A stretch of 56,014 nt of DNA, taken from positions 1 through 56,014 of IMG/VR virus record IMGVR_UViG_3300030102_005174. One strand, given 5' to 3'. This stretch comes from a virus (taxonomy: Duplodnaviria > Caudoviricetes). A program made the position numbers and the translations under genes. The notes beneath the pieces were generated by a model, which was not told the DNA's origin, searched no databases, and saw only the letters and a program-made list of their open reading frames with translations. Each line of letters begins with the position of its first letter. The stretch's first letter is position 1. Shown piece by piece: positions 32,498-39,413 of this stretch.

Positions 32498-33883
32498 ATG
32501 CCAATTACTGATTTACATACTGAATATGAAGATTACAGCATACAATGGAAAAGGATAAGAGATTGTGTTGCCGGTGAAGATGCCGTCAAGGACAGTGGGC
32601 AAGTACACTTACCAAAACCGGATAATATGTTACCAGACCAATATGTTAATTATTTAACAAGGGCATTGTTTTATGGCGCAACAGGCAGAACATTATCTGG
32701 GTTGGTAGGTGCTGTTTTTAGAAAAAGACCAATAGTACAAGTGCCAGATAGGTTGAGGGAAAATTTATTTAATGTTACCGGCACTGGTGTACCATTTGAT
32801 AATTTTGCACAGCATACAGTTGAAGAAACACTTGCAATGGGTCGTTTTGCAGTATTGGTTGACAGACCGGCAGAAGCAGATGGTTCACCATACTTTAGAG
32901 GTTACAGGGCAGAAGAAATAACAAACTGGCGCACAGAAACAATTAATGGTGAAGAAAAGCTGGTGCAGTGCATATTAAAAGAGGTTTCTGAAACACCTAT
33001 GGCTGATGGGTTTGGTACAGAGCGCAAGTTACGTTATAGAGTATTAAATTTAATTGATGGTATTTACACGGTTCAAATATATGAGGAAAGCGAAGATGCT
33101 GAAGTATTTGCATTGGTTGATGAAATAACACCACAAAAAAGAGGTGAAAATTTTGATTATATACCATTGCAATTTTTTGGTTCTGTTGAGTTAAATCCAA
33201 AAGTACAAAAACCACCATTAATAGATTTGGCAAACGTAAATATAAGCCATTACAGAACAAGTGCAGACTTGGAACAAGGTAACTTTTTAACAAGCCAGCC
33301 GACCCCTTATATAACTGGCTTAAAAGCAGACCAAATGGGCGATTTTCCTATTGGTAGTGGTAGTATGTGGTTTTTACCGGAGAGCAGTAATGTTGGTATG
33401 TTAGAATATCAAGGTGCTGGTCTTACGTTTTTAGAAAATGCGTTAACAAGAAAACAACAAATGATGGCACAACTGGGCGCAAGGCTTTTAGAAGATAGTA
33501 GGCGTTCTGTTGAAAGTGCTGAAACATTGCGTGTAAGAAGCAGTGGCGAAAGTAGTGTTTTGGCTAATTTAGCAAATAACTGTAGTATGGGTTTAGAGCA
33601 ATGTTTGGAATGGTATGTAGATTGGGAAGGGTTAAACCCAGATATTGTGGAAGTTACATTAAATACAGACTTTTTGGATAAGCGATTAGACCCAACTGAA
33701 TTAAGAGAGTTGGTAAGTGCTTGGCAAAGTGGAGCAATACCATTAGATGATTTAATTTATAATTTACAGCGTGGCGAAATACTACGACCAGATTACAGTA
33801 TTGATGAGGTAAAAGGTTTACTGGAACAAACGCCAACAACAACAGTTGGTAATGAGTTAGAGTTAGACGAAAGTGAAGAGTAA
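32498..33883 (+). CDS. Portal protein (DUF4055-like)
   Basis: Follows TerL; Y..YL.RA.FY..T.RT, PPL.DLA.VNI.HY..SAD and LGARLL. Confidence 0.9.
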   Translation: MPITDLHTEYEDYSIQWKRIRDCVAGEDAVKDSGQVHLPKPDNMLPDQYVNYLTRALFYGATGRTLSGLVGAVFRKRPIVQVPDRLRENLFNVTGTGVPFDNFAQHTVEETLAMGRFAVLVDRPAEADGSPYFRGYRAEEITNWRTETINGEEKLVQCILKEVSETPMADGFGTERKLRYRVLNLIDGIYTVQIYEESEDAEVFALVDEITPQKRGENFDYIPLQFFGSVELNPKVQKPPLIDLANVNISHYRTSADLEQGNFLTSQPTPYITGLKADQMGDFPIGSGSMWFLPESSNVGMLEYQGAGLTFLENALTRKQQMMAQLGARLLEDSRRSVESAETLRVRSSGESSVLANLANNCSMGLEQCLEWYVDWEGLNPDIVEVTLNTDFLDKRLDPTELRELVSAWQSGAIPLDDLIYNLQRGEILRPDYSIDEVKGLLEQTPTTTVGNELELDESEE

Positions 33884-36800
33884 TGGCAGTTGGCAGACCT
33901 AACCCAGTTGGTGATATAACTGGCGCAAATGATAAAGTTGCCGATAATATCATTACTCATGCTGTAAATCTTGAGAGATTAAAATCAAGCGAATATCAAA
34001 AAGTATTTCAATTATTAGATAAACTTGAGATTGAATTAGAAGAAAAAATAAAAAAAATTGATGTTACTGCCGTTGGTGGCAAAGCAAGACAAAAAAGATT
34101 TACCAAATTACTTGCAAATGTAAGAGCCACAATAAAAGCGCAGTATGGAGACATTAATTCTAAATTTAAAGATAGTTTAAAAGATGTTGCTAAACTTGAA
34201 CCTAAAGTTTTAGCAAACGGTATTGGTAAAGCCGTAGCCAATAATCCTAAAGTTGGTGTTGCATTAGTTCAATTTTTACCACCCCCCACAACATTACAAG
34301 CGTTAGTTGATGACACATTAGTTATGTCTGCTCCAGTAAAAACACACTGGCAAAGGCAAGCCGGTGATTTGGTTGAAAGATTTACTGATGCAATGCGTGA
34401 AGGCATATTAGCAAATGAAAGTATTGGCGATTTAGTACGCAGAGTAAGAGGTACAAAAGCCAATAATTTTAAAGATGGAATAATGAATGTAAAGCGCTAC
34501 CAAGCAGAAGCATTAGTGCGCACAAGTGTTCATGCAGTAAGTAATAAAGCAAGGCAAACAACTATCGACAGAAATATTGATATTATTAAAGGGTATCAAT
34601 GGCTATCGACACTTGATACAAGAACCAGTGATATATGCAAATCATATAGTGGTTTAACATGGGACAGTAGTAAAAATCCTATTGGGCATAAAAAGGGTTA
34701 CAGAACACCACCAGCACATTATAATTGTCGTTCAGTTATTGTTCCAATGTTAAAATCTTTTAGTGAACTTGCCGGTAAAGATTTAACTTTTAATAATAAA
34801 AAATTTAGAAAAGGGTTTGAAAATGCTTTGGTGGCAAGTGGCATACCATTGGGCGAAGCAAAAACAATAAAGCGTGGGATGCAAGCAAGCATGACCGGAC
34901 AAGTTGCCGGTGAACTTACATACGAGACTTGGTTAAAAACAAAAAGTGTAAGCATACAAAAAGAAGTTCTTGGTGATGGTCGCTGGCAATTATGGAATGA
35001 TGGCAAAATAGGATTTGTTGATTTAGTTGACCAACGTAATAATCCATTAAGTTTAGAGGAACTTATTGCGTTAATTGATGAAGGTAAAACAAGTATCGCG
35101 CAAGCCAGCAAAATTGCCAAAGATTTAGCAAGGCAAGAAGCAAAGAATAAAGCCATACAACAAGCGACATTGGTTAAAAAGGAAGATGAGGCATTAGAAC
35201 TACTTAACAAGGCAATAGGGGGCGCTACAGGTTTTAAAAACCACCAGAAAGCATTTAAAAAGTTAAGTAAACAATCAAAATGGAATAATTTAAGCAATCA
35301 AGAAAAAGTAACTGCAATTCAAGCAGATGTTGATAATATTATTTTAACATCTAAAATTTCAACAATTAAAAAGAAAATAAAAGACGGTAAAAAGTTAAGC
35401 CCAAGTGAAGAAAAAACTTTGGCTGGTTTATCACAAGAACTCAAAGAAGAAATAAATGATTTAAAAGTAAACTCAAAAGAATTAGTTTTGCTTAAAAAAG
35501 ATTTAGAGGGTCAAATTGGTTTCACTGAATATATGTTTAAAAATAAAGTATTTGGTGAGAATGTTGTTAAACAAGTTAAATTTATTGTTGAAACATCTGA
35601 CATAACAAGTATCTCGGCAATGCAAAAATCACTTGCCAGAATAAATCAAATAAAAATATTACAAAAACAAGCATATAAAGATGTGTTAGATTTTAATGAA
35701 GAAATATTAAGTTACAGCCCAGCAAAATTAAAAATGTTGGCAGACGAAATTTATCCAGACGGTTATTTTTTTAGCCCAAGTGAAGCAATAAGTAATTTTT
35801 TAAAGGGTGAAAAGATTGCGCCAAGCCTTAACGTAAAAGTATTAAAAAATTTAGGTGATGAAGGTAAATTATTAAAAGCAAAAGACACACCATTATCTGA
35901 ATTAAAAACTCAAGAATTATATATTAATTATGCCAAAAATGCTCAACGTAAAGTAAATTTAAAATTCAACATGGCAAATGATAAAGCCCAATTAAAACTT
36001 GATAAAATTATCAGTGCCGATAAAGCAAGTGGTTTGCTTACTGAGAAAAAAGTTTACGACAAAATGTTGAAAGATGGCTCACCGGTTTTAAGTGCAGAAA
36101 AATATGACATTGTTTCTTTTATTGAAGATGAAGCTGAAAAAATTAAAAAAGCCGGAAAAATTGGTCAACAAAAAAGTATTATATCCTCAAAACTTGCTGA
36201 AGAAAAAGCCTTAACAAATAAACAACAAAAATTTTTAAATGATTTGTCAATAGGTGATCCGGAAGAATATCAAAACTTTTTAAATTTGGTCGAGGTTAAA
36301 AAACTTAAACTTGGTAAAAAAACTGATGCCGGAATAATTGCCGTAGATGAAGCAAATGACCAACAAATATTATTTTCAAATATGGAACAAATTGATGGAC
36401 AAACCGGCAGTAATATAGGTGGTTTATTTAAAGACAAAACAACCGGTATCAAATATTATATTAAATCAGCACAAAATGAACAACAAACATATATTGAGAT
36501 GCTTTCAGCAAGGCTTTACGAAATGGCTGGAGTTCGAGTACCCAAATTAAAAGTAATAAACATTGATGGTAAAATTGGTAATACGCAAATAAACAGAGTT
36601 GGAATTGCAAGTAAAATTGAAGATGTTGAAGATATTGAAATTAATGACATGATTGGATTAAATGGTGTTGAAGAAAATTTTGCAGTTGATGCGTGGCTTG
36701 CAAACTGGGATGTCATTGGTGAAGGTGGTGCAAGCACATATAATCTTAAAAAATTAAAAGATGGCAGTGGTGCATTAAGATTGGATACTGGTGCTTCAAT

Positions 36801-38982: not shown

Positions 38983-39404
38983 TGACACCAGCACAAGAAA
39001 CATTAATGCAATATGTGGCATCTAGAAAGCCGTTACTGTACGTTTACGAGGGTAGAATTAATTATGTATGTAATTTGGTGGTAATTGATAATTATGCCTT
39101 TGGAGACGGCTCAAAAGCCGAAGGAATAGCCATTGGTCTCGATAAGTGGTATATGCCTACAAATTATGGAGTAAGAGCAGTTAGATTTTTGCAAGGTAAA
39201 TTGGAAGGCACATCAGATGACATTTGGGATATTGGTGAAAATGAGATACGAAGAACATTACCGGAGTTTGGTGAAGATTTAGAAACAAATCGGTGGAATG
39301 CAGAGTGCAAAAAAAATATTTCAAAAAGTTTTTTTAAAACATTACAAAACACATTGTTGGATGATATTGTAGCAGATTACGGTTTGAAAAAAAGAAGGGG
39401 CTAA
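38982..39404 (+). CDS. Candidate immunity/partner protein of the MuF effector
   Basis: 140 aa; TAATG-coupled to MuF; followed by a terminator. Confidence 0.5.
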   Translation: MTPAQETLMQYVASRKPLLYVYEGRINYVCNLVVIDNYAFGDGSKAEGIAIGLDKWYMPTNYGVRAVRFLQGKLEGTSDDIWDIGENEIRRTLPEFGEDLETNRWNAECKKNISKSFFKTLQNTLLDDIVADYGLKKRRG

Positions 39405-39413
39405 ACGCCCCTT
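39395..39413. terminator. Bidirectional intrinsic terminator
   Basis: AAGGGGC/GCCCCTT stem between convergent genes; U-run on the - strand. Confidence 0.75.

Follow-up and report, generated by a model that had tools for sequence, protein, structure and literature searches.

A phage MuF head protein with a kinase-like domain, a candidate ADP-ribosyltransferase-like cassette and a coupled companion gene

The 56,014-bp virus genome IMGVR_UViG_3300030102_005174 (Duplodnaviria; Caudoviricetes), analysed here at its full length and called the window below, carries a plus-strand gene of 1699 codons before the stop (33883-38982; protein P0001), recognised from its open reading frame (ORF) and translation and from a full-length homologue (P0004, 78% identical). 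The encoded polypeptide is a MuF head protein, and the mapping of homologue matches divides its C-terminal ~870 residues into three conserved domains, called A, B and C. Its stop codon overlaps the start of a 140-residue companion gene (38982-39404, plus strand; protein P0002); the junction reads CTGTAATGACA, so that TAA and ATG have one base in common (TAATG). Among relatives, genes of the companion family adjoin most proteins that carry domains B and C and are absent beside related proteins of other architectures. This co-variation supports a specific functional tie, in which the companion is the cognate partner of B+C. An earlier note on this DNA had described the long ORF after the portal gene and the short ORF coupled to it by TAATG, and both ORFs and their junction are as it described them. 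It had also counted two enzyme-like domains in the C-terminal part; conserved domains are indeed present there, but their number is three.

Association of the companion gene with domains B and C

Homologues of residues 600-1699 are numerous. An exhaustive HMMER search returned 3514 representative proteins at E ≤ 1e-3, 2051 at E ≤ 1e-10 and 284 at E ≤ 1e-30, and two scans gave 457 and 438 confirmed viral contigs with relatives of the module. Among the 80 viral loci that the first scan gave, A, B and C are contiguous in every complete frame and domain C lies at the extreme C-terminus, except in locus L068, where ~265 residues follow it and the match between companion profile and downstream ORF is weak (E 0.002). 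The N-terminal parts of these relatives are variable and their complete ORFs span 1046-2685 residues. When the 3' end of the locus is closed, a coupled plus-strand ORF of 90-180 residues lies behind the giant gene in 60 of 71 loci; 57 of these 60 ORFs belong to one BLAST-linked family, and the hidden Markov model (HMM) of this companion family has matches in 68 of the 71 loci.

A second scan was seeded with proteins joining domain A to an Alt-type ADP-ribosyltransferase (ART), to bring in other architectures. De-duplication reduced 154 loci to 120 unique ones, 97 of which are closed at the 3' end and have 450 nt or more of downstream sequence. In this set, companion HMM matches adjoin 56 of the 62 A-B-C genes, versus 0 of the 35 genes of other architectures (22 A, 1 AA, 1 AAR and 11 AR), where domain C is absent or another ART stands instead. 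Six A-B-C loci were missed, namely L054, L071, L068, L003, L136 and the locus of the window itself (WIN). In L054 the opposite strand encodes a companion homologue (E 2.7e-14), which borders directly on the stop codon of the giant gene, and in L071 the companion match falls inside a long open frame. The window and L003 form a divergent clade, and L136 has no companion at all. By a crude count made without chance control, a candidate start codon overlaps the stop by 1 or 4 nt in 44 of the 62 A-B-C loci.

On backbones of 46-66% identity, either domains B and C or an Alt-type ART is present. Thus, L083 (domain A, a helical linker and an Alt-type ART) and L059 (A-B-C) share 66% identity over residues 1-535 and 48% over domain A; the similarity ends right behind domain A, and the downstream gene is a 77-residue ORF in L083 and a companion in L059. 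Since the switch occurs within one backbone, the co-variation of companion and B+C is not a mere effect of phage lineage: within one backbone lineage, B+C and the companion are exchanged as a unit. The earlier note had proposed checking whether C-terminus and downstream gene are swapped together, and the counts above, with a breakpoint after domain A, bear this out. Moreover, MuF-kinase proteins that lack domain C are followed by coupled ORF families of their own, one of 19 members (147-176 residues) and one of two members (77-82 residues). Such ORFs are found at L109, L121, L146, L119, L127 and other loci, and at L083/L084. PHROG scans assign them to no family, and they are candidate partners of the cassettes that precede them. 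A cassette accompanied by a cognate partner is the pattern of polymorphic toxin-immunity systems. It demonstrates the tie and does not imply inhibition; an immunity function of the companion would be one way to account for it.

Domain A occurs with ARTs of several kinds. In four sister proteins (P0013, P0016, P0018 and P0020) it precedes an Alt/VIP2-type ART (PF03496/PF01129), sometimes with a NUDIX domain in addition, and P0012 has two copies of domain A and a DRAT domain. Tandem duplicates of domain A are seen in P0012, L118 and L149, one of them with a DRAT-type ART. Domain A is thus paired with three ART-type families (PF03496 Alt/VIP2-type, DRAT and domain C), which argues for a functional tie between both chemistries. 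The arrangements are best explained if the kinase is the constant part and B+C would be one of several interchangeable ART-type cassettes placed behind it.

Judged from its sequence, the companion of the window is a divergent member of the companion family. Aligned with the family by hhalign, P0002 scores 28.4 (P 1.2e-4), co-linearly from the N-terminus; column-shuffled controls score 9.9±2.3, with 0 of 200 reaching 28.4, and the reversed control scores 8.9. With filters off, the family HMM gives 13.8 bits (E 1.7e-5) on P0002, and both position and size agree with those of the companions of relatives. Close homologues of P0002 number five in a collection of 5.8 billion proteins. No match was found for it in Pfam, PHROG or NCBIfam, and an ESM Atlas search gave scores below 0.9 throughout. 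The family as a whole comprises proteins of ~110-145 residues without macro-domain match. In a tree of 128 columns, built by a quick method rather than by careful maximum likelihood and midpoint-rooted for drawing only, the window clade stands on a very long branch among viral companions. A predicted complex of B+C with P0002, run from the family alignments without controls, obtained a score of 0.00 and a mark of 0.32, which speak neither for nor against binding.

Domain organisation of the MuF protein

Residues 15-589 (33925-35649, plus strand) constitute the MuF or head-morphogenesis module, as indicated by a match to PHROG 241 'head morphogenesis' (E 4.6e-94). Within it, the Pfam MuF core spans residues 167-286 (34381-34740, plus strand; PF04233 Phage_Mu_F, E 6.8e-10, 40.1 bits against a gathering cut-off of 29.6) and contains the motifs LDTRTSDIC (residues 243-251) and PPAHYNCRS (residues 276-284), from which the earlier note had already recognised a MuF protein. 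These matches and the packaging and head genes around it support the assignment of 33883-38982 as a MuF head protein in a head-morphogenesis block (terminase, portal, MuF, and later scaffold and major head protein). The module is followed by a linker (residues 590-826; 35650-36360, plus strand) without Pfam or PDB match. The linker had been described as helical and charged. Its charge is raised, with K, R, D and E making up 31.6% of residues 400-830 and 26-27% of three of four other segments; however, domain C reaches 31.7%, so that the feature is mildly distinctive. Beyond residue ~590, searches of Pfam, PHROG, NCBIfam and PDB sequences give no match. Pfam searches at E ≤ 10 on four sub-segments, and NCBIfam searches, returned chance-level matches only, and PDB sequence and profile searches with residues 600-1699, domain A, B+C or the companion family returned nothing meaningful.

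Domain A (residues 827-1081; 36361-37125, plus strand) was assigned from an AlphaFold2 model built on 51 sequences (mean predicted local distance difference test score, pLDDT, 88.6), from Foldseek and from conserved residues. Foldseek finds 129 matches in the PDB at E ≤ 0.001, the best being CtkA of H. pylori (3akl; E 2.5e-5, template modelling (TM) score 0.52, 12% identity). Among the matches listed, CtkA entries occupy ranks 1-4 and the others, with actin-fragmin kinase, CotH and many eukaryotic kinases, are mainly protein kinases. All 51 sequences have G842, K861, E872, D936 and D943, and 50 of them have D968. In the model, strands 1 and 2 are connected by a GSNxGG loop, strand 3 contains K861 and the next helix E872; a helix at model residues 111-119 precedes the loop with D936 and D943, and a short strand precedes D968. 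These positions would correspond to the Gly-rich loop, the strand-3 Lys and helix-C Glu, the catalytic-loop Asp and the metal-binding Asp of protein kinases. A protein-kinase-like fold of an atypical kind is therefore predicted with confidence for domain A, in agreement with the kinase-like domain of the earlier note, and the domain may have kinase activity towards a substrate.

Domain B (residues 1082-1384; 37126-38034, plus strand) is a middle domain delimited by its conservation, and its complete form is found solely together with domain C. Both were modelled jointly (residues 1082-1699, 53 sequences; mean pLDDT 87). Domain B has no confident Foldseek match in the PDB or in BFVD. It contains an acidic motif (residues 1095-1108; 37165-37206), in which G1096, D1102 and E1107 are conserved in 53 of 53 sequences, D1108 in 52 and N1095 in 51. 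From its conservation, this motif could be a third active site, either catalytic or metal-binding.

Domain C (residues 1385-1699; 38035-38979, plus strand) was tentatively assigned from Foldseek matches and conserved residues as a divergent ART-like domain of the H-Y-E pattern. Seven of the ten best PDB matches of the B+C model are ARTs (E 0.02-0.29, TM on target 0.27-0.51): five DarT entries, namely 7omy (E 0.021, prob 0.96), 7omw (TM on target 0.51), 7omv, 7omx and 7yk3, and two SopF entries, of which 7dn9 is among the top matches. The E. coli DarT1 entry 8baq comes at rank 27. The search of BFVD was led by unnamed giant-virus proteins, IIV-6 422L, baculovirus ORFs and a protein of a mycobacteriophage, all with E of 2e-3 or weaker. 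Residue ranges are not part of the Foldseek output, and the aligned lengths (200-225 columns) are compatible with domain C. As regards conservation, E1633 is found in 53 of 53 sequences, N1632 in 49, Y1565 in 48 and H1515 in 47. In the model, H1515 is at the end of a strand, Y1565 opens a strand YxFTR and E1633 opens a strand ETxFK; the H, Y and N-E elements thus lie on successive strands, in the same order as in H-Y-E ARTs, order along the strands being meant here and not spatial clustering. S1553, D1557, R1569, R1592, D1594 and D1601 are also conserved in 53 of 53 sequences, and R1544 in 52. On balance, domain C is probably ART-like, in which case it would bind NAD+ and transfer ADP-ribosyl groups. 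The ART-like domain claimed by the earlier note is thus moderately supported, by the fold matches to DarT and SopF and by the H-Y-E pattern, but has no sequence or profile link to a named ART family. The fold check on split domains that it had proposed gives, taken together, a kinase-like fold for A and weak ART matches for C, but no fold match for B.

Gene neighbourhood and chromosomal homologues

The record is rated 100% complete by CheckV and has a G+C content of ~33%. Family and PHROG matches identify, upstream of the MuF gene, a small terminase-like gene (start 30838), the large terminase (start 31185) and the portal (start 32498) and, 3' of the locus, the scaffold (start 41454) and the major head protein (start 42391), next to which stands a head-tail adaptor. 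Tape measure and tail fibre genes are at the beginning of the record, an order consistent with a circularly permuted genome of the siphovirus type. A RecE-like exonuclease (17386-18396, minus strand) and a primase/helicase (19987-21813, plus strand) are also encoded. Neither the tyrosine (PF00589) nor the serine (PF00239) integrase family has a match anywhere in the record. Just 5' of the packaging genes, 28667-29875 encodes a 402-residue protein with ParB-like and DNA-methyltransferase matches (PHROG 498, E 5e-136). A search of INPHARED found no near-identical phage. The closest relative (76% identity over residues 820-1699) is on a 57.7-kb contig binned with a Flavobacteriales metagenome-assembled genome, which offers a Flavobacteriales host as a lead only.

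A GC-rich hairpin (39395-39413) overlaps the 3' end of the companion gene. The earlier note had placed a terminator here; the hairpin is present, but it is the minus strand that scores in the terminator scan, the T-run being on that strand and an A-run on the plus strand. It thus sits between two convergent genes, the companion and 39429-39698 (minus strand). Between the companion and the scaffold lies an island (39429-41367) with three minus-strand ORFs of 89, 111 and 124 residues, which have no family match and also occur in the relative L003; it further holds an HNH endonuclease-like ORF (40559-40864, plus strand) and then a minus-strand ORF of 147 residues. The segment 38500-41600 contains 10 terminator-like hairpins, as compared with 1.3 expected.

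Full A-B-C modules are also present in assemblies labelled Halomonas, Endozoicomonas, Bordetella, Methyloversatilis, Verrucomicrobiota and others, and one of them (L163) lies inside a 6-Mb Endozoicomonas chromosome. In the genome with L163/L264, a degenerate partial domain B with two stop codons (G001:C1:5671482-5671880) is found just 3' of an intact A-B-C gene and its companion; it may be the remnant of a displaced cassette, as in polymorphic toxin loci.

To look for homologues of the companion, 301 genomes were sampled from the class to which one prophage-bearing genome belongs and were translated in six frames. Of these, 29 contain matches to the companion profile; the B+C profile has them in 1 of 300, which is the prophage-bearing genome itself. 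Accordingly, 28 are stand-alone chromosomal genes without B+C (L265-L291 were fetched), well conserved and ~116 residues long. Their neighbours are ordinary and varied (2-oxoglutarate oxygenase, 5'-3' exonuclease, radical-SAM/TRAM enzyme, TPMT, Hsp20), and Pfam and NCBIfam give them no name. In the companion tree, the 27 homologues retrieved and translated group together as a single short-branched clade (Shimodaira-Hasegawa approximate likelihood ratio test, SH-aLRT, 97). By sequence, the phage companion is thus related to an uncharacterised chromosomal family. The idea that the chromosomal genes are immunity genes repeatedly captured from phages was rejected as a main explanation, given the single clade and its short branches.

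Proposed function and known systems

The MuF polymorphic toxins (PMC5576092) have in common with the present locus a MuF N-terminus after the portal, a long enzyme-like C-terminus and a downstream ORF of less than 150 residues, and in both cases C-terminus and downstream ORF vary together. In that paper the class is described as confined to temperate phages, whereas the present record has no detectable integrase, though relatives occur in bacterial chromosomes. Unlike these toxins, the protein studied here has three effector domains, the kinase being constant and the ART-type cassette exchangeable; in the main text of PMC5576092, the word 'kinase' occurs 0 times. The polyvalent proteins (Iyer et al., 2017; PMC5512222) are presented, in the accessible part of their description, as multi-domain virion-associated effectors that are predicted to be injected and include MuF fusions. 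They comprise a distinctive clade of the Ser/Thr/Tyr-kinase superfamily, and ARTs are their commonest modifying domains. The polyvalent ART family (ART-PolyVal/Tox-ART-HYD2) is of the H-Y-D type; in domain C, by contrast, a Glu is invariant (53/53), and no Pfam family matches it. The polyvalent kinase clade is described as lacking a whole C-terminal subdomain and as occurring mainly in Verrucomicrobia-Chlamydia and Bacteroidetes; the comparison of domain A with it is by description only, not by alignment. In the same part of PMC5512222, no cognate small partner gene was found described.

DarT of the DarTG system (7omy, 7omw, 7yk3, 8baq) provides the closest solved neighbours of domain C, with an H...E layout on successive strands. 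DarT is a toxin neutralised by the product of the adjacent gene, a candidate parallel to the companion. DarG, the partner of DarT, is a macrodomain hydrolase. Unlike the components of DarTG, domain C has no DarT sequence or profile similarity and is fused to a head protein, and the companion has no macro-domain match. As for domain A, the closest solved fold is that of H. pylori CtkA (JHP0940; 3akl, 3akk), with a TM of ~0.5 over the whole domain. CtkA, the gene of which is located on a mobile element according to a literature listing, is a stand-alone protein, whereas domain A, 12% identical to it, is embedded in a MuF head protein beside an ART-type cassette. Among phage proteins, T4 Alt is a head-packaged ART injected with the DNA and T7 gp0.7 is a kinase that phosphorylates host transcription and translation factors (as summarised in the available parts of Iyer et al., 2017, 2022). 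The likeness to these two is one of function and not of homology, and here both predicted activities are in one MuF-anchored polypeptide with a partner gene. The A-B-C module and the companion family were not found described in the accessible parts of PMC5512222, PMC9503650 and PMC5576092, supplements aside; earlier cataloguing is possible.

The explanation that we prefer, with moderate confidence, is that the gene encodes a MuF-anchored A-B-C effector, packaged and injected, with the companion as an immunity or antitoxin-like neutraliser. In outline, this largely follows the interpretation of the earlier note. The N-terminal ~590 residues would anchor the protein in the capsid beside the portal. 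The C-terminal ~870 residues would be the effector, which, as SPP1 gp7, T4 Alt and MuF-effector fusions suggest by analogy, would be packaged and would enter the host with the DNA; it would consist of the atypical kinase-like domain A, of domain B, which matches no known fold, and of the divergent H-Y-E ART-like domain C, for which DarT is the closest solved fold. Each cassette would bring its own translationally coupled small gene. Most likely, the companion would bind the enzyme and neutralise it in the producing cell during virion assembly; it would be left behind, so that the enzyme, once injected, could act in the next host. The data show the predicted folds, the residues conserved in them, the order of the genes and their distribution and co-variation; that the protein is packaged and injected, that it is toxic, which reactions it catalyses on which targets, and that the companion inhibits it are steps that we infer.

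It should be noted that several observations weigh against this explanation. The best PDB matches of domain C are weak (E 0.02-0.09), and none reaches E ≤ 0.001 in the PDB or BFVD; H1515 (47/53) and Y1565 (48/53) are not invariant. No Pfam family, ART families included, matches domain C even at E ≤ 10. PADLOC, run on the 53 B+C members, finds no DarT model and no other consistent family, and hhalign of the B+C profile with 19 natural DarT sequences from genomes gives a non-significant probability of 0.7%. ESM Atlas matches of domain C are below threshold (<0.9), and the nearest named clusters, Shigella_OspC and Tox-ART-HYD1, are leads only. The companion has neither family name nor fold match in Pfam, NCBIfam, PHROG, PDB-profile and Atlas searches. 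Its stand-alone chromosomal homologues, in 28 of the 29 genomes with the family, are not obviously expected of a dedicated phage immunity protein. Finally, a phage without detectable integrase kills its host anyway, so that a need for self-protection is not self-evident. As a separate point, the hhalign, PADLOC and Pfam results give no sequence or profile match of domain C to the DarT family (PF14487). The same weak E-values and the same lack of DarT profile similarity and of Pfam or PADLOC matches would suit a non-ART enzyme or a binding domain with a shared split beta-alpha core, the chemistry then coming from the kinase, perhaps with a contribution of the acidic motif in domain B, and the many invariant residues outside the classical ART triad (R1544 and S1553 to D1601, listed above) point in this direction. 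However, the best PDB matches are mostly ARTs, with prob values of up to 0.96, the strand order of H, Y and N-E is that of H-Y-E ARTs, and sister proteins carry bona fide ARTs (PF03496, DRAT) in the same place behind the kinase; we therefore hold a non-ART domain C to be unlikely.

The role of the companion can be read in other ways. It is possible, though doubtful, that it is a cognate helper and not an inhibitor, either a chaperone or packaging adaptor that would maintain B+C in a foldable state and thread it into the procapsid or a co-injected subunit for activation or targeting. A helper would account equally well for the translational coupling and for the strict association with B+C, the conserved chromosomal homologues suggest a general binding module, and SopF, a fold neighbour of domain C, was solved with a host co-factor according to the title of the PDB entry. 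Yet no common helper accompanies the other cassettes of this backbone, the small ORFs of which are unrelated, and the companion evolves much faster than the enzyme (mean column identity of 18% versus 33%), which is usual for immunity proteins, though not decisive. A second possibility arises from the chromosomal homologues, which complicate a simple immunity function and lead to the idea of immunity by target mimicry: the companion would be a fast-evolving phage copy of the ~116-residue bacterial protein that B+C targets, or of a part of this target, and would serve as decoy or pseudosubstrate, with the kinase as obligate partner of the ART. The latter part follows from the joining of the same kinase domain to ARTs of three families, a pairing that suggests a two-step change of one host target, for example an ADP-ribosylation that is made irreversible or is directed by phosphorylation. 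As a joint proposal, this is quite unlikely. We consider it very unlikely that the module is a MuF polymorphic toxin sensu Jamet et al. (2017), that is, a weapon of temperate phages or a modulator of the lysis-lysogeny decision whose small gene protects lysogens, and not an effector for host takeover or anti-defence at the stage of infection. The architecture and the downstream small ORF agree with this class as described in the available part of PMC5576092, and A-B-C modules are found inside bacterial chromosomes (L163), but the complete record has no PF00589 or PF00239 integrase, and the gene to which the companion is coupled is a late structural one, with no sign of independent expression of the companion in lysogeny. 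As to an ordinary lineage-specific morphogenesis gene behind MuF, the location of the small ORF inside the head gene block would fit; this is hardly credible, however, as the ORF is absent from closely related backbones without B+C, has homologues in non-phage chromosomal contexts and matches no PHROG.

MuF-fused effectors and polyvalent proteins are a recognised and almost untested class of virion-delivered enzymes. The module is widespread, its occurrences including hundreds of viral contigs as well as prophages from several phyla, and its effector domains and partner match no curated family. With a constant kinase and exchangeable ART-type cassettes, each with a coupled small gene, it represents a natural experiment in which the logic of toxin and immunity, or of enzyme and partner, is directly testable. 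The chromosomal homologues of the companion point to a bacterial family that is possibly the target of such effectors, or a defence against them. Moreover, the presence of a DarT-like fold on a head protein suggests that phages may inject an enzyme that ADP-ribosylates nucleic acids or proteins together with a kinase.

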